The notes beneath the pieces were generated by a model that saw only the letters and a program-made list of their open reading frames with translations, was not told the DNA's origin and did not search any database. Below are positions 8,002-22,658 of a DNA stretch of 51,576 bases, piece by piece (position 1 is the stretch's first letter; each line of letters starts with the position of its first letter). The DNA lies in IMG/VR virus record IMGVR_UViG_3300038330_000010, positions 1-51,576 of that record; one strand, given 5' to 3'. This DNA is from a virus (lineage: Duplodnaviria; Caudoviricetes). The position numbers and the translations under genes are program-made.

Positions 8002-8381
8002 GCCTGGAGAACGTACCTGATCGTATCTGGTTCTTACTGATCGGTCTGGTCATATTCGCCATAACGTTGTGGCTATACCAGGGCTGGAACCGGGCTGAGA
8101 GGGTCCTTAACCGTGTCACAACGTTAATTACGGTCGAGAGCCCTCACTACTGCGGTACCTGCATGCTGACCAATTGGGAGTTCAGCCTGCCGGAGGATCA
8201 CTTTCCGCCATGGTTGCATAAGTCCGCAGACAATATGAGGCAGATGCCATACGGAACAGCGTACATTACAGACCATGAGTACCATCCCGTGTATCTGGTA
8301 GATATAGCCAAACTGACTCGGGATCCGGAGTCCTGGGAGCAGTATGGGCGCCATCTACATCTACGCTCCCCCAGGGTATGA
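7998..8381 (+). CDS. Membrane protein
   Basis: N-terminal TM helix IWFLLIGLVIFAITLWLY. Confidence 0.7.
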   Translation: MSLENVPDRIWFLLIGLVIFAITLWLYQGWNRAERVLNRVTTLITVESPHYCGTCMLTNWEFSLPEDHFPPWLHKSADNMRQMPYGTAYITDHEYHPVYLVDIAKLTRDPESWEQYGRHLHLRSPRV

Positions 8382-8803
8382 AACTTACGGCCGAACAGAG
8401 GGAGGCAGTTAGGCGTTTGCAGATGGAGCATCTAACCCCGACCTCATACCTGAAAATACTGGACACTGAAGCCTATATCGAGGGATTATGGCGTGAGTCT
8501 GCCGAGTGTGTTCAGGTATGCAAGGACTATCCAGATCAGTATAACCCGAACGAGTGGTTCCCTATGGATCAGGGCCCCAATAAAGCAGACCACGTCCCCA
8601 TGAAAGTGAGGGCCATTTGCAACGACTGTGAGGTACGTCTACCCTGCCTTGCTTATGCCATTCAGACTAGACAGGAGAACGGTGTATGGGGTGGGCGAAC
8701 AATCAAGTCGGTTCGAAGCATACGAACCCGATTGCTCGAGGCCTTAGCTCAGATGAACCAGACAGACAGGGGGCCTAGACAAGCAGGAAGCAAGCACAAC
8801 TAG
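8378..8803 (+). CDS. whiB: WhiB-family Fe-S transcription factor
   Basis: AEC...WFP...ICNDCEVRLPCLAYA...GVWGG; the family is characteristic of actinobacteria and their phages. Confidence 0.92.
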   Translation: MKLTAEQREAVRRLQMEHLTPTSYLKILDTEAYIEGLWRESAECVQVCKDYPDQYNPNEWFPMDQGPNKADHVPMKVRAICNDCEVRLPCLAYAIQTRQENGVWGGRTIKSVRSIRTRLLEALAQMNQTDRGPRQAGSKHN

Positions 8804-13853: not shown

Positions 13854-14320
13854 GCCAGTTTGATGTGGTAATGGAGCGACTCGACTCCATCGACAAGACC
13901 CTATCTAAGGTGAGGAACTCTATTGGGTTCATTACTGCCTACATAGAGGATCAAAGGAGAGAGGAAGAGGCAGATCACTTGTTCGGTGAGGATCCATTCG
14001 ATCAAGCGGACTATAGCCCAAGGCATGCTACTTTACCGGCCACAGATGAACCTGTCATCCGTGCTGTCCTGCCTGGTGCTACCCGGACTCGGGTTGAGGC
14101 CCTTGACGAGACAGGTGTTACCGTTGAGGTACCGATGGATGAGCTTGACCCGTTCTATCAGGCTCTTATCAAAGAGTCGGTCAAGCAAGCGACCTGGTTT
14201 CAGGTTTATCGGGATAGTGCAGCTGGACCATGGAAGATCACTGCCGATGATACGGTACTTGATGCGGTACGCAAGTCAGGCATCTCACCAGCGGCGAATC
14301 GCCCTGATCTGACCGAGTGA
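13850..14320 (+). CDS. Hypothetical protein
   Basis: GGAGGTG RBS, GTGA overlap. Confidence 0.7.
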   Translation: MSQFDVVMERLDSIDKTLSKVRNSIGFITAYIEDQRREEEADHLFGEDPFDQADYSPRHATLPATDEPVIRAVLPGATRTRVEALDETGVTVEVPMDELDPFYQALIKESVKQATWFQVYRDSAAGPWKITADDTVLDAVRKSGISPAANRPDLTE

Positions 14321-15759
14321 AGTTCAAGCCTAAGGTCAAGCCGTACAAACACCAGCGGGAGGGGTTGAGATGGCTATGGAAACAAGAGAAGGGTGGCGCC
14401 TTCTTCTGGGATCCGGGTACAGGCAAAACGAAGGGAGCCTATGATTATGTCTCAGCCAGTTACCTATACAGGCAAGTGCGTCGTGTGCTGGTCGTCTGTC
14501 CGATTAATGCAGTCCAGGTATGGGACGACCAAGCTGATAGGCATATCCCTGATCCGATCACATTTCAGGTCTTTATACCAGAGGGCACTATCGCTGGAAA
14601 GACAGATCAAATCCGTGCGATCCCACGTGGAGGCAGTGAACTTACCATCCTCATAGTCAACTACTCCGCCATTATTAAGCGGGATAAGCGGTGGGACATA
14701 ATGAGGGCCCTGAAGGCATATGCCCCTGATATACTGATACTGGATGAGTCACACCACATCAAAAACGCGACCGCCAAACAGAGCAAGGCAGCGCATGAAA
14801 TTGCAGGAGTGGCCAGGTTTAGGTTGTTACTTACGGGTACACCTATCGGCAAAAACAACTTGGACCTTTACAGCCAGCTCAAAGCCATCGACCCACAGAT
14901 TTGGAAAGCAAAGTGGACACGAACAGGAGTAATGTCGTGGACCGATTTCAGGAACAACTATGCCATCTATGGTGGCAGGAGCGGATATGAGATACGTGGC
15001 TATATTAACGTGGACGATCTCCGAAACCGATTTACACCCTACATTCGGTCTGCCCGCAAAGAGGATATCCTCGATATGCCGAAGGTCACCGACTCGATTA
15101 TTCCTGTCGACCTCTCACCTACGGTCAAGCGTGCCTACAACATTTTTTCTCAGGAAGGACTTATTGTCTGGCGAAGGCATCTTATTGAGGCTCCAATCCC
15201 CCTTACGAAACTCCTCAGGCTGCAACAGATAACAGGAGGCTGGGTACACGATGAACAAGGAGAATCCGTTGCGATACATATGGAAAAGATTGCGGTACTT
15301 ACCGACCTACTGGAGGACTTTCGATCAACTGGAAGACGAGTTCTGGTTTTCGCCCGTTTCCTCTCGGAGATTGCGGCGATTGTGGCGGCGGCTGACAAGA
15401 TATACCCCCGAACCTTCGAGATTAGGGGAGGTGTCTCTGCCGAATCTCGCCGATCAATTGTACGAGCTTTCTCCAACGGAAGTCCCGCTGTTCTTGTCAT
15501 CCAGTCAGCATCCGCCGAGGCTCTTGATGGACTCCAAACTGATTGTGCCGAAGCCATCTTCTACTCCACCGACTACTCTCTCATCCATTGGTCGCAGGCA
15601 CGGGGAAGACTGGACCGATCTGGACAACGACAGCCTGTGACCTTCTACCATCTGCACGTTCGGGGTACTGTGGACAACATGGTCTTTACTGCCCTGAAGG
15701 AGAAGAAAAACCTGGAAAAAATGGTGATGGATGACCCCAGCATCCTGATAAGCCGTTAG
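14317..15759 (+). CDS. SNF2-family helicase
   Basis: DPGTGKT, LDESH, LLTGTP, LLRLQQI, QARGRLDRSGQ. Confidence 0.93.
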   Translation: MKFKPKVKPYKHQREGLRWLWKQEKGGAFFWDPGTGKTKGAYDYVSASYLYRQVRRVLVVCPINAVQVWDDQADRHIPDPITFQVFIPEGTIAGKTDQIRAIPRGGSELTILIVNYSAIIKRDKRWDIMRALKAYAPDILILDESHHIKNATAKQSKAAHEIAGVARFRLLLTGTPIGKNNLDLYSQLKAIDPQIWKAKWTRTGVMSWTDFRNNYAIYGGRSGYEIRGYINVDDLRNRFTPYIRSARKEDILDMPKVTDSIIPVDLSPTVKRAYNIFSQEGLIVWRRHLIEAPIPLTKLLRLQQITGGWVHDEQGESVAIHMEKIAVLTDLLEDFRSTGRRVLVFARFLSEIAAIVAAADKIYPRTFEIRGGVSAESRRSIVRAFSNGSPAVLVIQSASAEALDGLQTDCAEAIFYSTDYSLIHWSQARGRLDRSGQRQPVTFYHLHVRGTVDNMVFTALKEKKNLEKMVMDDPSILISR

Positions 15760-15799: not shown

Positions 15800-16084
15800 G
15801 TGACTGAGGAAACTCATGGGACGGCAGCAGAAGAAGCTGTGGGCCTGGTCTACGGCGACAGAGCAAAGACCTACGGTCACCCGGCCGATGTGTACGAGAA
15901 GGTCGCAGAGCTATGGTCTGGGTACCTAGAGCAGAGCGTCACGGCAAAGGATGTAGCCTTGCTGATGGTTCTGTTCAAGCTAGGCCGGTTCATTGAGAGG
16001 CCCAACAGAGACAGTCTGGTAGATGCTCACGGCTATCTGCTGGTGTGGGAGAGGATAGACAGAAGGAGTACCGGAGAGGAATGA
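15800..16084 (+). CDS. DUF6378-like protein
   Basis: GDRAKTYGHP...VAELWSGYL...DVALLMVLFKLGR...DSLVDAHGY. Confidence 0.85.
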   Translation: MTEETHGTAAEEAVGLVYGDRAKTYGHPADVYEKVAELWSGYLEQSVTAKDVALLMVLFKLGRFIERPNRDSLVDAHGYLLVWERIDRRSTGEE

Positions 16085-16500
16085 AGATAACACCCAAGAT
16101 GAACAGACCATTACAGTTCCATGAATTGCGAACCTTTCAGCTATACCACAGGGCTTGGCTGGAACACAACTTCCCGAACCAGAAGCCACACGAAGCATTG
16201 CTCGGTCTGGGTGAGGAGGTGGGCGAGTTGATGCATGCCCATCTAAAGAGGGATCAGGGTATAAGAGGAGTGGATGATGTAGCCTATAGAAACGGTGCGA
16301 TGGATGCTGTCGGGGACATAATGATCTACCTTGCCAGCTACTGCAACACCAACAACTTGGACATGGCGAAGTGCCTGATGTATGCATGGGAGGAAGTACG
16401 TGCCAGAGACTGGATCAAATACCCCAAAACGGGTGTTGCCCCAACCGAACAGCCCACGAATGCGGAATCAAGTCAGGGAGATTCGGGCTATTCTGAGTGA
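16081..16500 (+). CDS. MazG-like dNTP pyrophosphohydrolase
   Basis: GEEVGEL...DAVGDIMIYL acidic motifs. Confidence 0.88.
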   Translation: MKITPKMNRPLQFHELRTFQLYHRAWLEHNFPNQKPHEALLGLGEEVGELMHAHLKRDQGIRGVDDVAYRNGAMDAVGDIMIYLASYCNTNNLDMAKCLMYAWEEVRARDWIKYPKTGVAPTEQPTNAESSQGDSGYSE

Positions 16501-16565
16501 AACCTTTGAGGACGTTGATTATGTGGACTTTGACGAGTTGGCCTTGCAGATATGGAGAGTGACCC

Positions 16566-16850
16566 GTGGTTGACCGTGGCATATACCCGAAGTTTTTGGT
16601 ATTCGAGCATCCTGACGAGGAGGTACAGGACGTCCGTGTCACCTACTTCCACAAGCACAGACTGCCTGACAGTCCTGTCGTAACCAACCTGCACCAGCAC
16701 TACGCCCCGCCGTTGGATGACTTCGTGTTTGTCCTGAAGCCCATCTCCGACAAGCATGCCCGAGTAGCTCTGGCTGCCTACGCTGAGTCAGTCAAGGAAG
16801 AGAAGCCGAACCTGTCCAACGATATTCGTGAGGTGCTGGATGACTTCTAA
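16566..16850 (+). CDS. Hypothetical phage protein
   Basis: FVLKP..DKHARVALAAYA motif recurrent in phage nucleotide-metabolism loci. Confidence 0.7.
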   Translation: MVDRGIYPKFLVFEHPDEEVQDVRVTYFHKHRLPDSPVVTNLHQHYAPPLDDFVFVLKPISDKHARVALAAYAESVKEEKPNLSNDIREVLDDF

Positions 16851-17148
16851 ACCTAACCGTGACCAACTAACCGAAGCCCTGGCCCTACATCAGCGAGCGT
16901 TGTCAGCATTGGCGCTGGAACTGCCTGCCCAAGTGTTCGAGGACTACAAAGCCATTGCGACCGTATTGGATGAAGCTGCTCGTTGGGCTAGGGACTTCCC
17001 CACCGACGTACAAGTAGAAGCCTGCGCTAAGGCTCTCTGCCTCTATGCGTGGGGCGCTGACAAATGGGAGGACGATCACAAGGGCATGTGGCGAGAACAA
17101 GCGAGGGCTGCGTTGGAGGCGGTAACCATGATCGGAGACAACCAGTGA
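16840..17148 (+). CDS. Hypothetical protein
   Basis: GAGGTG RBS; WREQARAALEA tail. Confidence 0.6.
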   Translation: MTSKPNRDQLTEALALHQRALSALALELPAQVFEDYKAIATVLDEAARWARDFPTDVQVEACAKALCLYAWGADKWEDDHKGMWREQARAALEAVTMIGDNQ

Positions 17149-17993
17149 CCTTTAAGGTAGTAAGAGCCCACGACTTGACCTCATTGTGGGCCAAGAATGT
17201 ACGCCAGCATCTGTATCGGGAAGAGGTTGACCTGTATCTGGGTATCGGTACCAACCTCAATGACATGGTACTGAAGGCAGACTCTGCGGAGTACGACTTC
17301 AACCTGCAAGAGTTGTGGTTGAACAAGCAACGTTGGACCAGGCTGATTCGGGAATACATCGACCCGTATGAGTTGTCCAGGTTTGTCAAGAATAGCCACA
17401 TCATCTACAACGGTAAGGGAAAGAATGGAGTTGTCACCAATATGCATTTCCGTTCAGTCGACCGCCGAGCCGACCTCCGACGCCACAAGTGGGGCAACTG
17501 CTTACTGGCCGCTACGTTTAGAGGTACACCGAATTCCAGAGTGCCGCCAACACTTACACTTCACAGCCGAGTCTCATACAATGCCTATATGCTCGGTATG
17601 GATATGGGAGTGGCTCACGCAATTGCTCGGGAGATTGCCGACCCCGCCACTATTGCAATCCAATGGCATTTGGATGTCATGCAACTCCATTCCTTCAAGT
17701 GTCTGCCCTACCTGTATACACAACCAGACCTAATGGAGGTGCTAGAGGACAGGGATCATCTCACTGAGCTGGCTTTGCAGTTCCCTACCTGGAAGAGCAT
17801 CTCCCGTTGGTGGTGGAAGGTATTGCAGTTCGAGGATGAAGGCAAGACTGTAGCGGCTGAGTTGTACGGGCCCTTCAAGAGGATCCGCAGAAGGTACGAG
17901 GAGTATCAGCGTGGGATTACCGTGCCATCGGTACACATCTCGGAGCTGGACTTCAGCAAACTAGGAGATGGTTATAGTGCTAAGAGACCGTAA
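17145..17993 (+). CDS. Divergent thymidylate-synthase-fold protein (dCMP-type Asp)
   Basis: WGNCLLAATF (catalytic-Cys strand), LHSRVSYNAYMLGMD (R..+11 Asp), WHLDVMQLH. Confidence 0.65.
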   Translation: MTFKVVRAHDLTSLWAKNVRQHLYREEVDLYLGIGTNLNDMVLKADSAEYDFNLQELWLNKQRWTRLIREYIDPYELSRFVKNSHIIYNGKGKNGVVTNMHFRSVDRRADLRRHKWGNCLLAATFRGTPNSRVPPTLTLHSRVSYNAYMLGMDMGVAHAIAREIADPATIAIQWHLDVMQLHSFKCLPYLYTQPDLMEVLEDRDHLTELALQFPTWKSISRWWWKVLQFEDEGKTVAAELYGPFKRIRRRYEEYQRGITVPSVHISELDFSKLGDGYSAKRP

Positions 17994-18735
17994 GGATGTT
18001 GACCATCAGCTTCGCAAGAGGTTTATCCAGACAGGTGAGGTAGTCAACCGGGAAGAGTGGCAAGCCATGAGGGACGATCGTCCCATGACTGTCACCTATG
18101 AGATTGCCGACGTTGATCTGGAGATACCTGTACCCCTGGCCATTGATCTATGGCAGGACGTGTGCCAACCAAATCTCCCCTGGGCTGAGGATCACTTCAA
18201 GGAGCGAGTTGGGGGTGTACCCCTCAACCCGGGGGAGCAATACAAGAACTGGCCTTGGTATGAGCAAGGGGTAGAGGAACACAAAGGCACAGGTAAGTTC
18301 AGTCACACCTACATGGAGAGAATGTGGGGTGATGCAGCGGCCACACTGGATGGGGTAGTCAAGCTCCTGAGGGAAAGACCTATGACCCGCCAGGCATATT
18401 GCACAATATGGTGGCCAATAGATGTGATGAACTCCAACCTCAGTCGGCGTGTGCCATGTTCTCTCGGGTACCTGTTCCAGTTCAGACCAGAAACACAGTC
18501 CTTCGATATGTGGTACTACATGAGGTCGGTAGACTTCTATCGTTACCTGTGGGACGACATCTACATGGCCGGGCGCTTGCTTCAGTGGGTCAGGAGGAAG
18601 GCACACATCGAAGCGCCCATCGGTTCAGTCCACCTGAAGATAGCCAACCTCCACGTGTTTGCTGCCGAGCAGAGCAGACTGGAAGAGGAGTTCAAGACAG
18701 AGGAAAGGGATAGGTTGAACAATGCTTTCCGATAG
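17968..18735 (+). CDS. Thymidylate-synthase-fold dCMP (hydroxy)methylase-like enzyme
   Basis: TRQA, VPCSLGYLFQFR, YMRSVDFYRYLWDD (Asp at the E. coli ThyA N177 position), IANLHVF. Confidence 0.85.
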   Translation: MVIVLRDRKDVDHQLRKRFIQTGEVVNREEWQAMRDDRPMTVTYEIADVDLEIPVPLAIDLWQDVCQPNLPWAEDHFKERVGGVPLNPGEQYKNWPWYEQGVEEHKGTGKFSHTYMERMWGDAAATLDGVVKLLRERPMTRQAYCTIWWPIDVMNSNLSRRVPCSLGYLFQFRPETQSFDMWYYMRSVDFYRYLWDDIYMAGRLLQWVRRKAHIEAPIGSVHLKIANLHVFAAEQSRLEEEFKTEERDRLNNAFR

Positions 18736-19282
18736 CCATTTCATGGACGTGGCCGGGGTTATCTCCGACGCAGGCACATGCTCCCGGCTGCAGGTTGGGG
18801 CAGTGATCGTCAGGGATAGGCGCATCATCTCCACAGGATACAATGGTGCCCCTAAAGGTATGCCTCACTGTGACCACAGTAACCCAGATGATTTAAGGTT
18901 TACTACCATTATGGGCGGCTGTGTTGTGTCGGTACATGCTGAAGCCAATGCCATTTGCTATGCAGCCAAGACCGGGATAGCCACAGATAAGGCCAGTCTC
19001 TACACCACAGATGCACCGTGCCAGAAATGCGCGGAGTTGATCGTCAACGCCGGGATAATCGAGGTGATATATGGAAGAGAATACAGAATCCGTGACGGGC
19101 TCGATCTCCTTAAAGCAGCTAGGGTCCACGTTACGAGCATTGAGCAATCCAGCCTGCACTTTATGCCCCCTGCACCAGGACACGGACCGAGTGTGCATCC
19201 CAGTCAACAGTCCGACCCGAGCTTTGAAGAAGGATGGACAGCAGCTGCGGATGCTCATCGTCGGGGAGGCCCCAGGGTATAG
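18722..19282 (+). CDS. dCMP deaminase
   Basis: TCSRLQVGAVIV...GYNG...HAEANA...PCQKC; the C-terminal extension overlaps the polymerase gene. Confidence 0.93.
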   Translation: MLSDSHFMDVAGVISDAGTCSRLQVGAVIVRDRRIISTGYNGAPKGMPHCDHSNPDDLRFTTIMGGCVVSVHAEANAICYAAKTGIATDKASLYTTDAPCQKCAELIVNAGIIEVIYGREYRIRDGLDLLKAARVHVTSIEQSSLHFMPPAPGHGPSVHPSQQSDPSFEEGWTAAADAHRRGGPRV

Positions 19283-21551
19283 TGAGGAGAGGACTGGGCA
19301 GTTATTTTCTGGCAATGCGGGACAGCTTCTCGACCGGGAACTGGAGAGGGTAGACCTCAAGCGTGAGTGGTTCTTCGTTACCAACGCCGTCAAATGTAGG
19401 CCCGAAGATAACCGCGCACCAACGCCGAAGGAAATCAAGACCTGTGTCAGTAGTTACCTTATCAAGGAACTGGCAGAGATACAACCACAGTTTGGGCTCT
19501 TACTTGGCAACGGTGCGTGCCAGGCGATACTCGGGAAGAAGGGGATAACCCAGTTCAATGGCCAGATCATTGAGCGGCACGGTGTGAAGTGGGTGCCGGT
19601 CTTTCATCCGGCCGCTGTGTTGCGTAACCCAAGGTACCTATCACCTTTCAAGGCAGCCCTGCTAATCTTCGCCCGGTTGCTACGGGATGAAGAAGGAGTT
19701 CCCCTCACCGAGACCACGCTGGTAGACGACAAGGACAAGCTGCGTGAACTGGTAGAGGCCTTGAAGGGTGCGGAGAGGGGTGCCCTTGATGTGGAAACGT
19801 GGTCGAGTCACCCACCTGTAGGTAGATTCAAGGGGGGAGGACTTGCGTGGTGGCACCATGACTGGAAGCTGTGTACCATCAACTTCTCGGTCAAGCCTGG
19901 CTACTCCTACGTCTTACCTCTGTGGCATTATCAGAGCCCATGGAAAGACCCGCAGAAGGTAGTGGACATCATCAAGCCGCACGTTGAGGCAGTGAAGTGG
20001 ACCATGCACAATGGCAAGTATGACTCCAAGTGTCTGTGGCGAATTGGCATCGACACCATCCATGACTACGACACCATGGGTGCTGAGTATGCCATCGACG
20101 AGAACAACATGAAGGACTTAGGCTTTATGTCTAAGGTATACCTAGGGGCACCAGACTATAAGGACATGGTCAACAAGGGGAACGTGTTCTATGAGCCATT
20201 AGACCTGCTCAGTGAGTACGGAGGACGTGATTCCGATTACACCTACCGGCTCCGAGACCTGACCAAACGCAAGCTGCAATCCGACTTCAATAGCTGGCGG
20301 CTTTATCGCACGCTACTACTGCGAGCAGATCAAACCTTGACTCGCATTGAGTACCAGGGCATGCCACTGGATATGCCCAAGCTAGAGGATCGCACGATTG
20401 AGTGCGAGAAGTTGGTTGCCGAAGTAACGGAGGAAGTATATGACCTTACCGGATGGGAATTTAACATCAACAGCCCGGCCCAAGTCGGTGATATCCTCTT
20501 TAATCACCTGGATTTTCCCGTTCTGGAACTTACCAGAACTAAGAAACCCTCCACTAGAGAAGGTGTCCTTCTACAACTTCGGGGACTGGATGAGTCAGGT
20601 GTCATGGAGGCCATCCTTAGATACCGAAAGTATCAAGGTTATATTAGCCGATACTTCACCCCCTATCCTGTGCTTAGTGATGATGCCGGGAGAATCCACT
20701 GCCACTTCAAACCATTTCATACCGTTACCGGACGGCTCTCAAGTGAACATCCGAATCTTCAACAGGTTCCGCGGGATACGTTTGTCCGTGGACTATTCGG
20801 ACATCGAGAAGATGGGTGGGTCATCCTAGAGGCTGACTATAGCCAGGTCGAGATGCGACTGGCCGCACACTACAGCCAGGACAAGACACTAGGAAGGATC
20901 TTCAACTCCGGCCGGGACGTTCATATGGAAATGGCTATGAACATGACAGGCAAGGCTAAGGAGGACGTCACATCTGAGGAGAGGAAGATGGCTAAGGCCA
21001 TTAACTTCGGGTTCCTTTACGGGATGGGCTGGAAGAAGTTCATCACCTATGCGGCAGAGAACTACGAGGTTAAGGTCAGCGAGGCTAAGGCACAGAAAGC
21101 CCGTCGGGAATTCTTTCAATCTTACCGTCAGCTTCAGCCATGGCACGCTAGGCAGCGGGCGAAGGCGGAGAAGAATGGGTATGTTGTCTCCAGCATTGGC
21201 AGGAAGCGACACCTGCATGACATCCACAGCAGCAACGAGGACATCCGTGCAGAGGCACAGCGTCAGGCAATCAACTCACCTGTCCAGTCACTGGCTTCGG
21301 ATATGATGCTCCTTGCTATGTGTGAGCTAGAGGACATTCTACCTGTAGATGAATGCCGTAGTATTTCAACCGTGCATGACTCGATCCTCTTTGAGGTGAG
21401 GGAAGATGCTGTCAGCAGATGGGCACCAGTCATTAAGGAGGTGATGGAAAACCTACCCCTGGAAGATCAATTCGACACCCGACTAACGGTGCCCATAGTA
21501 GCTGATCTAAAGGTAGGCCCTTACTGGTCAGAGGGTACCACTACGATTTGA
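19071..21551 (+). CDS. Family A DNA polymerase with N-terminal family-4 UDG domain and 3'-5' exonuclease
   Basis: CxxC, GEAPG, NAVKCRP, HPAAVLR (UDG4); DVET, HNGKYD (exonuclease); DYSQVEMR, KAINFGFLYG, VHDS (PolA). The true start may be TTG 19140. Confidence 0.95.
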   Translation: MEENTESVTGSISLKQLGSTLRALSNPACTLCPLHQDTDRVCIPVNSPTRALKKDGQQLRMLIVGEAPGYSEERTGQLFSGNAGQLLDRELERVDLKREWFFVTNAVKCRPEDNRAPTPKEIKTCVSSYLIKELAEIQPQFGLLLGNGACQAILGKKGITQFNGQIIERHGVKWVPVFHPAAVLRNPRYLSPFKAALLIFARLLRDEEGVPLTETTLVDDKDKLRELVEALKGAERGALDVETWSSHPPVGRFKGGGLAWWHHDWKLCTINFSVKPGYSYVLPLWHYQSPWKDPQKVVDIIKPHVEAVKWTMHNGKYDSKCLWRIGIDTIHDYDTMGAEYAIDENNMKDLGFMSKVYLGAPDYKDMVNKGNVFYEPLDLLSEYGGRDSDYTYRLRDLTKRKLQSDFNSWRLYRTLLLRADQTLTRIEYQGMPLDMPKLEDRTIECEKLVAEVTEEVYDLTGWEFNINSPAQVGDILFNHLDFPVLELTRTKKPSTREGVLLQLRGLDESGVMEAILRYRKYQGYISRYFTPYPVLSDDAGRIHCHFKPFHTVTGRLSSEHPNLQQVPRDTFVRGLFGHREDGWVILEADYSQVEMRLAAHYSQDKTLGRIFNSGRDVHMEMAMNMTGKAKEDVTSEERKMAKAINFGFLYGMGWKKFITYAAENYEVKVSEAKAQKARREFFQSYRQLQPWHARQRAKAEKNGYVVSSIGRKRHLHDIHSSNEDIRAEAQRQAINSPVQSLASDMMLLAMCELEDILPVDECRSISTVHDSILFEVREDAVSRWAPVIKEVMENLPLEDQFDTRLTVPIVADLKVGPYWSEGTTTI

Positions 21552-21575
21552 CCCAGGTTGTCGGAATATTACAAT
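21548..21575 (+). promoter_or_regulatory. Promoter for the recombination module
   Basis: TTGACC-16 nt-TACAAT. Confidence 0.55.
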
Positions 21576-22658
21576 CTGTCTGAGAGCAGCGAACGCCAGG
21601 AAGGAAGCCAGCAGTTGTCCAATTTGGTTATCAGCCAGTCGTCGGTCAAGAAATTCCGACGGTGCAAACGGCAGTATTACTACTCCGTCGTAGAACAGTT
21701 GGAGGTTCGGCTACAAGACCCGAAGCTCAAAGCAGGCAACTGGGTACACGGTCTTATGAATGTCCACTATGACGGGGGAGACTGGCGCAAGGAACACAAG
21801 AAGCGGACCAAGGAGTTCAACAACCTGTTCCTGGAAGAACGTGAGTATTACGGTGACTTGCCAGGCATGGCAGAGCGCATGATGGAGGGTTATCTCAACC
21901 ACTACAAAGATGTGGAGAAAGACTGGGAGGTACTGAGCAATGAGCAAACCTACATCGGCACGTTCGATGGGGAGTATGAGTTCTCCTTCAAGCCTGACCT
22001 CATCATCAGAGACCACAGCACACCCAAGCCTGAAGTCTGGATCGTTGACCACAAGACCGTCAAGTCTCTACCGTCGAGTGACTGGCGTATGGAAGACCTT
22101 CAGTCTACGCTGTATCATTGGGCCATCGTTCAGAACACGGATCTAAATCCCAAGGGGTTCCTGTTCAATTACATCAGGCGGAAGGCACCTACAGTACCGA
22201 AGGTCAACAAGGATGGGTCAATCAGCAAGGCCCGTATAGACACTGACTACTTCACGATGGCTAGTTTTCTCCTTGACTACTATCAGGTAGACTCGGTGAA
22301 CAAACTGCCGAAGGACTACAAGGTTCGTCTGAGGAATCTGAAACTGGACAACAGATTCCTGAAGCGGTCCAAGCTAATCAAGCCTGATGTTCTCGTGAGC
22401 CGACAGCTAGAGGAGTTCGGTTACACAGTTCAGGAGATGGAGGTCTGGCATGAGATAGCTGGAGACAATGCCTTGAACCCAGCGAACAAGGACGAGGATC
22501 CATGGGTTAGGACGATGATCCCTAGCTGCGAATGGGATTGTGAGTACCACGACCTGTGCATGGTTGAGCTACTGGGTCAGGACAGTGAGTTCATCCGCAA
22601 GCGCAAGTACCAGCCCAGCAAATACACGGAGGATAGAGGACTTGGCAGTCAAAGATAA
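21558..22658 (+). CDS. PD-(D/E)XK Cas4/RecB-like exonuclease
   Basis: SQSSVKKFRRC, GNWVH, KPDLI...VDHKT, Q..LY, C.W.C.Y..LC; likely start TTG 21615. Confidence 0.9.
   Translation: MSEYYNLSESSERQEGSQQLSNLVISQSSVKKFRRCKRQYYYSVVEQLEVRLQDPKLKAGNWVHGLMNVHYDGGDWRKEHKKRTKEFNNLFLEEREYYGDLPGMAERMMEGYLNHYKDVEKDWEVLSNEQTYIGTFDGEYEFSFKPDLIIRDHSTPKPEVWIVDHKTVKSLPSSDWRMEDLQSTLYHWAIVQNTDLNPKGFLFNYIRRKAPTVPKVNKDGSISKARIDTDYFTMASFLLDYYQVDSVNKLPKDYKVRLRNLKLDNRFLKRSKLIKPDVLVSRQLEEFGYTVQEMEVWHEIAGDNALNPANKDEDPWVRTMIPSCEWDCEYHDLCMVELLGQDSEFIRKRKYQPSKYTEDRGLGSQR

Follow-up and report, generated by a model that had tools for sequence, protein, structure and literature searches.

A putative cytosine-replacement cassette in an uncultured actinophage, with an additional and very divergent candidate thymidylate synthase-like gene

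In canonical, dTMP-forming ThyA, Asn177 is the uracil-specific residue. Position 177 has been reported as the top discriminator of modified contigs (PMC8670742), and a cassette consisting of a MazG-like NTPase, a thymidylate synthase (TS) homologue, a deaminase and a family A DNA polymerase (PolA) has been tied to phages with 5mC or 5hmC in place of C (bioRxiv 10.1101/2024.12.05.627091; PMC8670742). In the preprint, 104 of the 149 contigs with modified C, versus 17 of the 277 without it, have a dCMP deaminase at most 3 kb from a TS gene, and PRA-PH and DNA_pol_A rank near the top of the co-localised domains. Of 7 TS homologues in cis, 5 made 5mdCMP, and one deaminase converted 5mdCTP into dTTP (bioRxiv 10.1101/2024.12.05.627091).

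Two other positions of the TS fold differ among the described enzymes. Position 143 is hydrophobic in the enzymes that form a methyl group (ThyA, Xp12 5mdCMP synthase) and Asp or Glu in the hydroxymethylases (T4 gp42, MilA), and in the flavin-dependent 5-hydroxy-dCMP (5hodCMP) synthases RB69 gp48 and DLP3 gp80, which are TS homologues with N177D, a change at position 169 accompanies a switch of cofactor and chemistry (PMC13326640).

The window, that is, the whole stretch of 51,576 nucleotides analysed here (IMG/VR record IMGVR_UViG_3300038330_000010), is the complete genome of an uncultured phage of an actinobacterium. Its conserved replication/nucleotide module, with all genes on the + strand, opens with a SNF2-family helicase (14317..15759; Pfam SNF2-rel_dom 1.2e-24 and Helicase_C), a homologue of which was found upstream of gene 1 (see below) in 31 of 37 related viral loci collected using the gene 1 family alignment. 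The helicase gene is followed by that of a DUF6378 protein with no assigned function (15800..16084; Pfam DUF6378 1.3e-22), for which a PDB sequence search gave no relative; in the phages Muddy and Serbin this slot is occupied by a thymidylate-kinase-family gene. Next comes a MazG-like all-alpha NTP pyrophosphatase (16045..16500), which matched phrog_715 'MazG-like pyrophosphatase' (2.6e-10) and nothing in Pfam, NCBIfam or PDB. Its homologue precedes gene 1 in 30 of the 37 loci, and its predicted role is that of a dCTPase supplying dCMP. Two small ORFs (16566-16850 and 16828-17148) separate it from gene 1. Neither had a match in Pfam or NCBIfam, the first had a partial match to phrog_9572, and they are conserved in 3 and 0 of the 37 loci, respectively.

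Downstream of gene 1 (17145..17993) and gene 2 (17977..18735) there is a zinc deaminase of the dCMP/dCTP family (18722..19282; Pfam dCMP_cyt_deam_1 1.5e-21, MafB19-deam 1.2e-16), whose PDB matches were 2hvv (1.8e-23), T4 1vq2 (7e-19) and PBCV-1 7fh4 (1.2e-12). In 36 of the 37 loci a deaminase follows gene 2; its predicted role is the provision of dU or dT nucleotides, perhaps made from the modified dC nucleotide. It is followed, in 33 of the 37 loci, by a PolA, which in the window (19071..21551) has a 3'-5' exonuclease and an N-terminal domain of the UDG superfamily (Pfam DNA_pol_A 4.4e-100, UDG 1.7e-29, exo 4e-7). A PD-(D/E)XK nuclease (21558..22658; Pfam PDDEXK_1 1.6e-19) is the last gene of the block that is syntenic with Muddy and Serbin.

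Thus the window holds a TS homologue with Asp at 177, a deaminase, an NTP pyrophosphatase and a PolA within 16045-21551. Around gene 2, the genes and their order are those described for the metavirome/Xp12-type cassette, as is Asp at 177 (bioRxiv 10.1101/2024.12.05.627091; PMC8670742), and, as far as the available portions of these sources go, so are the deaminase matching both dCMP_cyt_deam_1 and MafB19-deam and the PolA with an exonuclease directly downstream. The gene neighbourhood agrees with the modified dCMP proposed in the original prediction from the sequence. The locus differs from the published cassette in that position 143 of gene 2 is Arg instead of hydrophobic and the C-terminal segment of ThyA is missing from this protein, and a second TS-like gene is not mentioned in the available portion of the preprint (bioRxiv 10.1101/2024.12.05.627091). 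As had been noted before, the genome appears to have neither a glycosyltransferase nor a dNMP kinase; none was recognised anywhere in it. A second TS or any ThyX was not found either, including in a six-frame search.

Regarding the gene starts, gene 1 (282 aa, a member of the unannotated family phrog_13667) most likely starts at GTG 17145, overlapping the stop of the upstream ORF; an alternative frame from ATG 17064 is longer and runs into that ORF. For gene 2, GTG 17977 is the probable start, with AGGAG 9 nt ahead of it and a length of 252 aa for the database protein P0121. The resulting overlap between the two genes is 17 nt. Residues are numbered here from GTG 17145 in gene 1 and from ATG 17968 in gene 2. 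The original prediction had placed an Asp 11 residues after a conserved Arg in both genes, and this holds exactly: codon 17601 is GAT, Asp153 of gene 1, following R142 of 'SRVSY', and codon 18556 is GAC, Asp197 of gene 2, following R186 of 'RSVD'. It had also read PC and RSxD in gene 2 and NC and RVSY in their place in gene 1; indeed, 'GNC' (C119) in gene 1 corresponds to 'VPC' (C164) in gene 2. The spacing of these residues is Y-48-C-23-R-11-D in gene 1, Y-49-C-22-R-11-D in gene 2 and Y-52-C-20-R-11-N in ThyA.

Gene 2 is a true but divergent member of the TS family with the cytosine-type Asp. Its protein scored 28.2 bits (E 1.4e-6) against Pfam Thymidylat_synt (PF00303), above the cut-off of 24.3, and 24.6 bits in the six-frame search, and it matched phrog_160 at 2e-22. 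Its closest solved relatives by profile were the CMP hydroxymethylase MilA (1.9e-7) and 9iqu (2.5e-7), followed by T4 TS (1.9e-6). By its 'RSQN' motif alone, 9iqu is a putative and unconfirmed enzyme of the 5hodCMP-synthase type; a literature search for the PDB codes 9IQU, 9IQC and 9IR2 returned no paper. The closest characterised phage relatives of gene 2 are enzymes of the gp48/gp42 type from Straboviridae, RB69 gp48-type proteins among them.

Alignment with solved and reference TS sequences (HMMER, MAFFT) put C164 on C146, R186-S187 on R166-S167, D189 on D169 and D197 on N177 of ThyA, and Y115, H229 and Arg161 on Y94, H207 and position 143. Gene 2 thus has the Pro-Cys with the catalytic Cys, the Arg-Ser pair and the equivalents of Asp169, Tyr94 and His207 that characterise TS. 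In ThyA numbering, Y94, R126, C146, R166, D169 and H207 were kept in 80 of 80 viral relatives and Ser167 in 79 of them, and position 177 was Asp in all 80. The changes with respect to ThyA across these relatives were N177D, L143R, R127Q and H147T/S. Furthermore, the C-terminus is about 55 residues shorter than that of ThyA, and the segment that closes over the folate is absent.

Gene 2 shares with T4 gp42 and MilA the TS fold family, the cytosine-type Asp and the short C-terminus. However, those enzymes have Asp or Glu at 143 (PMC13326640), whereas gene 2 has Arg161, invariant in the 80 relatives, and this genome lacks a glucosyltransferase or any other gene for decorating the hydroxyl. Nor does gene 2 have the bulky hydrophobic residue of the methyl-formers. 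Since Arg at 143 matches neither type, the product of gene 2 cannot be read from the sequence. It shares N177D with RB69 gp48 and DLP3 gp80 but not their signature D169N, having Asp189 at that position. Two assignments were rejected: the retained D169 speaks against a 5hodCMP synthase, and Asp177 together with the absent C-terminal segment speaks against a plain dTMP synthase. Gene 2 is predicted to be a folate-dependent C5-methylase or hydroxymethylase of dCMP. We give the methyl product roughly even odds, consider the hydroxymethyl one a reasonable but less favoured candidate, and regard any other product as unlikely.

Gene 1 is a different matter. Its protein had no match in Pfam or NCBIfam, PDB searches by sequence and by profile returned nothing, and Pfam TS (PF00303) matched 0 of 57 aligned members and 0 of 73 family representatives. 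The family comprises 287 clusters at 50% identity among 1.84 billion proteins, none of them annotated; it is present in at least 85 cultured phage genomes, that of Muddy among these, and a literature search found no paper describing it. The relatives compared share as little as 21% identity with the gene 1 protein (in a subset of 76 sequences), and across 245 sequences Cys119 was kept in 244, Arg142 in all 245 and Tyr71 in 243, while the residue 11 positions after the Arg was Asp in 241 and Glu in 4. Both proteins thus carry the cytosine-type Asp, as had been claimed, and its conservation in the two families exceeds what chance would give.

The comparison of the gene 1 family with TS profiles by hhalign gave scores of 28.8 to 37.9, with E from 2.6e-3 to 1.2e-4 and Prob of 11-56%, the best of which is below the usual HH-suite confidence. 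Nevertheless, the register was constant in these matches (C119-C146, R142-R166, D153-N177) and the score grew as more divergent members were added; narrow profiles gave no match in one comparison and E 0.16 in another. All 200 column shuffles stayed below 28.8, at 21.1 or less; the profile in reverse gave 14.0 and five unrelated families 10.5-18.0, and E for the controls was 0.14-0.74. The N-terminal 110 residues had no alignable similarity to TS. The Protein Atlas listed no structure model for this protein or for P0110, and in its language-model feature search the only named matches were TS-containing clusters, with PF00303 in 10% of their members, which we take only as a lead. In summary, of the two tandem TS-fold genes originally proposed, gene 2 stands above the Pfam cut-off, whereas the case for gene 1 is a weaker one, a sub-threshold but specific profile-profile match with three key residues in register. 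We consider gene 1 probably a very divergent and very old paralogue of the TS fold.

If so, gene 1 would retain cytosine-nucleotide binding, with Arg142 on the phosphate and Asp153 on N3/N4, and would keep the predicted nucleophile Cys119, having apparently lost the folate contacts Asp169 (now Tyr145) and Ser167 (now Val143). In the family, Tyr145 is Y in 210, F in 12, R in 6 and E in 5 of 245 sequences, and Val143 is V in 139, T in 80, A in 11 and S in 10. Gene 1 therefore departs from the RSxD of the folate-dependent TS enzymes at both V143 and Y145. It departs as well from the Asn at 169 of the 5hodCMP synthases, Tyr at this position being a state that PMC13326640 does not describe. A folate-free gene 1 would nonetheless parallel those flavin-dependent enzymes, with D169N there and Tyr at 169 here.

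The pair is also present in cultured phages. Mycobacterium phage Muddy has an orthologous pair in the same module and gene order, gp47 (hypothetical) and gp46 (thymidylate synthase), gp47 matching gene 1 at 2e-21 by BLASTP. Serratia phage Serbin has the orthologues gp51 and gp50, likewise in this module and order; gp51 aligned with the gene 1 family at E 3.5e-5 by hhalign, and five divergent proteins together at E 1.3e-17. The Serbin-type relatives have R-S/T-T-E after the Arg, versus R-V-S-Y in gene 1, and a locus scan with the divergent pair as query found only the pair's own two loci.

The original prediction offered an obligate heterodimer of the two proteins, or a two-step pathway. In the heterodimer, the two proteins would pair as a TS-like dimer, one of them serving as the catalytic subunit and the other completing or regulating its active site. 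Enzymes of the TS family are dimeric, their active sites taking Arg126' and Arg127' from the partner, and Gln replaces Arg127 in 80 of 80 members of the gene 2 family. Gene 1 was accompanied by gene 2 in 37 of 37 loci and never seen without it, and the genes, which overlap in the window, overlap or abut in 15 of the 37. However, they are at least 31 nt apart in the other 22, in some cases with other ORFs between them, and among 63 gene 2 loci with enough upstream sequence only 45 had gene 1. The relatives in the remaining 18, where gene 1 was not detectable, have identical active-site residues, including R127Q, and therefore an obligate heterodimer is not supported. Moreover, Cys, Arg and Asp of gene 1 are kept as strictly as those of an enzyme, and no fusion of the two was found among the longer proteins searched, which is weak evidence. 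A prediction of the complex gave ipSAE 0.00 in two runs, which, made without controls, gives no answer either way, and a literature search for TS heterodimers or TS paralogues in phages returned nothing. We regard the heterodimer as unlikely; the two-step pathway is possible. The strict dependence of gene 1 on the presence of gene 2, together with the replacement of the folate contacts D169 and S167 by Y145 and V143, would also suit a catalytically dead pseudoenzyme, which would bind dCMP or the modified nucleotide and act as a sensor or regulator for gene 2, the deaminase or the polymerase. Nevertheless, Cys119 in 244 and Tyr71 in 243 of 245 sequences would be unexpected if binding alone mattered, and this is the least likely of the explanations that we weighed.

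Gene 1 might also be unrelated to TS, a protein of another fold with another role in the replication module, whose Cys...Arg-x10-Asp pattern is convergent or coincidental. This would explain why the protein and its profiles have no sequence match in Pfam, NCBIfam or PDB, why hhalign Prob does not exceed 56% and why the first 110 residues do not align. However, the sole region that aligns is the TS catalytic core, in constant register and with a score that rises with broader profiles, shuffles and unrelated families stay far below that score, the Y/C/R/D spacing resembles that of gene 2 and ThyA, and the named matches of the feature search, a lead only, are TS-containing clusters; this explanation is thus very unlikely. 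Finally, the locus could serve thymidylate supply only, gene 2 making 5-methyl-dCMP and the deaminase turning all of this into dTMP or dTTP, so that the host ThyA/ThyX is bypassed and the DNA is canonical. The lack of any other TS or ThyX in the genome and the deaminase in cis in 36 of 37 loci agree with it, and such deaminases have been reported to make dT nucleotides from 5-methyl-dC nucleotides (bioRxiv 10.1101/2024.12.05.627091). On the other hand, the cassette marks the contigs with modified cytosine (104 of 149 versus 17 of 277 in that preprint), and a pure dTMP route needs no MazG-like NTPase. In addition, the relative MW202777 has an ORF similar to gene 1, a gene similar to gene 2 and the deaminase together with a ThyX gene, so that the pair is unnecessary for dTMP there. 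Thymidylate supply alone is therefore quite unlikely.

Our preferred reading, to which we give a probability of about 0.55, is that the locus is an actinophage version of the known cytosine-replacement cassette with one extra, undescribed accessory enzyme, gene 1. The MazG-like NTPase would convert dCTP into dCMP. Cys164 of gene 2 would then attack C6 of dCMP, the cytosine being read by Asp197, and the methylene of methylene-tetrahydrofolate would be transferred onto C5, giving 5-methyl-dCMP or 5-hydroxymethyl-dCMP. Host kinases would phosphorylate this product to the triphosphate used by the phage polymerase, and the deaminase would divert some of the cytosine nucleotides to dU or dT nucleotides. 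Against a replacement pathway, the genome has no recognisable dNMP kinase, which is normally needed for full replacement. Gene 1 would be a separate accessory enzyme dependent on the pathway of gene 2, not the obligatory half of a heterodimer, and, as we infer, would act without folate, through a Cys-C6 adduct, on dCMP or on the product of gene 2. A literature search found no base-modification analysis of virion DNA from Muddy or other phages carrying the pair, and PMC12363180 and PMC12646305 contain nothing about these genes. We consider it doubtful, although conceivable, that gene 1 represents an active and undescribed folate-free branch of the TS fold, catalysing a new Cys-dependent reaction at C5/C6 of a cytosine nucleotide, alone or on the product of gene 2, and that its carriers (Muddy, many Gordonia phages, Serbin) have an undescribed cytosine derivative in their DNA.

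What is known here is the type of cytosine-replacement cassette; what is new is gene 1, a candidate second enzyme that resembles a very distant relative of TS and is also found in Muddy. Muddy is a phage used for treating patients. If the carriers of this module replace cytosine, this would bear on their resistance to restriction and CRISPR, on the innate immune sensing of their DNA, and on sequencing, synthesis-based 'rebooting' and host-range engineering. Gene 1 may be a plausible source of enzymes for base-resolution epigenetic sequencing, as are the deaminases mined from the same cassette. If it has the TS fold with the nucleophile and the cytosine-reading Asp, minus the folate site, it would be a further case in which this fold has been recruited to a new reaction on pyrimidines.

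The gene pair is located on the plus strand, within the replication block of an IMG/VR virus record that is 51,576 bases long and that CheckV rates as 100% complete. A WhiB-like transcription factor gene at 8378-8803 (phrog_472, 1.7e-14) suggests that this uncultured phage infects an actinobacterium. The block comprises, all on the plus strand, an SNF2 helicase (14317-15759), a DUF6378 gene (15800-16084), a MazG-like NTPase identified by the PHROGs search (16045-16500), two small ORFs (16566-17148), gene 1, of an unannotated thymidylate synthase (TS)-like family (17145-17993), gene 2, of the TS family (17977-18735), a dCMP-family deaminase (18722-19282), a PolA with UDG-like and exonuclease domains (19071-21551) and a PD-(D/E)XK nuclease (21558-22658). 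Gene 1 starts at GTG 17145, which overlaps the stop codon of the preceding ORF. For gene 2 the most likely start is GTG 17977, given an AGGAG 9 nt before it and a length of 252 aa for the protein in the database; gene 2 then shares 17 nt with gene 1. The DUF6378 gene and the start of the MazG-like ORF overlap by 40 nt. The PolA frame opens with a domain of the UDG superfamily (residues 58-192, Pfam UDG 1.7e-29), to which the exonuclease and polymerase domains are fused. Read from its first ATG, this frame shares 212 nt with the deaminase ORF, therefore the true PolA start may be further downstream. This uracil-glycosylase-like domain on the polymerase, adjoining a cytosine deaminase, may be functionally tied to the pathway. 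Neither a second TS nor ThyX is present in the window genome.

Regarding gene 2, it passes the Pfam TS threshold (28.2 bits against 24.3), and its residues were mapped by alignment to reference proteins, among them E. coli ThyA, a T4-like Td and RB69 gp48. In ThyA numbering Y94, R126, P145-C146, R166-S167, D169 and H207 are conserved, whereas N177 is replaced by Asp, L143 by Arg, R127 by Gln and H147 by Ser, and the C-terminus is around 55 residues shorter than that of ThyA. The 80 viral relatives examined all share these states, except that residue 147 is either Thr or Ser and one relative has Ala at 167. According to the residue code of PMC13326640, N177D selects dCMP, D169N marks the flavin-dependent 5-hydroxy-dCMP synthases, and a hydrophobic residue at 143 gives a methyl product whereas Asp or Glu gives a hydroxymethyl product. 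Because of this code gene 2 is predicted to be cytosine-specific, and a 5hodCMP synthase was ruled out since Asp is kept at 169. However, Arg143 fits neither product class, and therefore the code does not decide between a methyl and a hydroxymethyl product. The nearest solved relatives by profile were the CMP hydroxymethylase MilA (1.9e-7), 9iqu (234 aa, 2.5e-7) and T4 TS (1.9e-6); among annotated phages outside the gene 2 subfamily, the next matches were Straboviridae proteins of the RB69 gp48/gp42 type, at around 24% identity. The td gene of Escherichia phage ECML-359 (Gaprivervirus; L043:1129-1989), annotated as 'dTMP thymidylate synthase', reads LPFDIGSY in the alignment of gene 2 with reference TS proteins, that is, Asp and not Asn at ThyA-177 in an otherwise canonical, full-length protein.

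Gene 1 is harder to place. The protein had no match in Pfam, NCBIfam or the PDB, its profiles had none in the PDB, and PF00303 matched 0 of the 57 members of its narrow alignment and 0 of 73 family representatives; PHROGs places it only in phrog_13667, of unknown function. A word-indexed search found 145 related proteins (E<=0.001), and an exhaustive one extended the family to 287 clusters at 50% identity. It occurs in 85 cultured phage records, from Gordonia (68), Mycobacterium (9), Streptomyces (4), Microbacterium (2), Curtobacterium (1) and Mycobacteroides (1).

The original prediction had placed an Asp at +11 from the conserved Arg in both genes, and this holds: codon 17601 GAT is Asp153 of gene 1, counted from R142 in SRVSY, and codon 18556 GAC is Asp197 of gene 2, counted from R186 in RSVD. 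The contrast between GNC in gene 1 and VPC in gene 2 was likewise found. Among 245 gene 1 family members Arg142 is conserved in 245, Cys119 in 244, Tyr71 and Gly117 in 243 each, and Ser141 and Trp174 in 242 each, and residue 153 is Asp in 241 and Glu in 4. The spacing is Y-48-C-23-R-11-D in gene 1, Y-49-C-22-R-11-D in gene 2 and Y-52-C-20-R-11-N in ThyA. Profile-profile comparison of the narrow alignments detected no similarity, and the broader gene 1 alignment gave E 0.16 against the gene 2 family, with the register already correct. Adding five reference TS proteins gave a score of 28.8 (E 0.0026, Prob 11.5%), pairing C119, R142 and D153 with C146, R166 and N177 of ThyA; with a looser setting H182 also pairs with H207. 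The 245-sequence alignment scored 34.8 (E 3.1e-4), a broader TS side 34.8-35.8, and the addition of three and five divergent gene 1 members 35.5 (E 2.3e-4, Prob 44%) and 37.9 (E 1.2e-4, Prob 56%) respectively. When the columns of the TS profile were shuffled, 0 of 200 runs scored as high as 28.8 (they averaged 14.2 and peaked at 21.1), and reversing the profile gave 14.0. Five unrelated families encoded at these loci scored 10.5-18.0 against the broader alignment and 11.3-17.7 against the 245-sequence one. The profile signal is specific and rises with added diversity, as in remote homology, although it stays below the usual HH-suite acceptance level. Judging from these sequence comparisons, gene 1 probably has a TS fold (probability around 0.85). 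If the alignment is correct, it has Trp at 143, Val at 167 and Tyr at 169, which would mean that gene 1 keeps the nucleotide site and has lost the folate contacts.

The two genes had been proposed to form an obligate heterodimer or a two-step pathway. In all 37 IMG/VR loci recovered via gene 1 (neighbours scored by phmmer) a gene 2 relative lies downstream on the same strand, with longest ORFs overlapping or abutting in 15 and at least 31 nt apart in 22. In the opposite direction, we took the best 80 of 437 IMG/VR stretches encoding gene 2 relatives and counted the 63 with at least 2.5 kb upstream, examining a 4-kb flank. The HMM found a gene 1-family ORF in 42, and three further loci (L056, L066, L082) had a motif-bearing ORF directly upstream (hhalign family match, E 4e-6). 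The other 18 had no detectable gene 1 within the flank, beyond which it could sit; eight of them, inspected by eye and by motif, had none. The active-site residues of gene 2 are the same in loci with and without gene 1. Gene 1 depends on the presence of gene 2 and gene 2 is independent of gene 1, therefore an accessory enzyme fits better than the obligate heterodimer.

Five divergent relatives of gene 1 match the family at E 1.3e-17 (hhalign) and have R-S/T-T-E after the Arg. They include Serbin gp51 and an unannotated ORF of GenBank MW202777 (Manatee Spring phage; L127:2429-3427, motif C...YYRTTE...AD), upstream of a 'pyrimidine hmase' gene; this phage additionally encodes ThyX and dCMP deaminase. 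A group of marine loci (L096-L121) carries a gene 2-like TS without an adjoining gene 1. In L100, the one locus of this group scanned against Pfam, a gene of the 2OG-Fe(II) oxygenase superfamily lies upstream of the TS (L100:2441-3127, PF13661 1.1e-8) and a deaminase around 2.7 kb downstream; the oxygenase may be another kind of accessory enzyme serving this core.

The surroundings of the pair are also conserved. Among the 37 gene 1 loci, a deaminase is present in 36, PolA in 33, SNF2 in 31 and an upstream MazG-like gene in 30, some of the misses being loci that end at contig ends. The gene order of the window recurs in Mycobacterium phage Muddy, with helicase gp50, 'thymidylate kinase' gp49, 'dUTPase' gp48, hypothetical gp47, TS gp46, gp45 and PolI gp44, and gene 1 matches gp47 at 2e-21; Serratia phage Serbin shares this order. 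The DUF6378 gene occupies the slot of the thymidylate-kinase-family gene of both phages. As originally stated, the PHROGs scan of 61 ORFs contained no glycosyltransferase or dNMP kinase, and the thymidylate-kinase model had no match anywhere in the window genome.

Literature searches found no paper on the gene 1 family or on the DNA composition of any phage carrying the pair. A metavirome study (bioRxiv 10.1101/2024.12.05.627091) reports a dCMP deaminase within 3 kb of a TS gene in 104 of 149 modified-cytosine contigs against 17 of 277 canonical ones, with PRA-PH, MafB19-deam and DNA_pol_A with its exonuclease as other top neighbours. In that study 5mdCMP was the product of 5 of 7 in-cis TS homologues, and a deaminase turned 5mdCTP into dTTP, in line with the proposal for Xanthomonas phage Xp12. 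In PMC8670742, residues 177 and 147 were the best separators of modified and unmodified contigs. Because these two works already show such a neighbourhood, the cassette of the window belongs to a published type, and its new part is the paired, unannotated TS-like gene 1.
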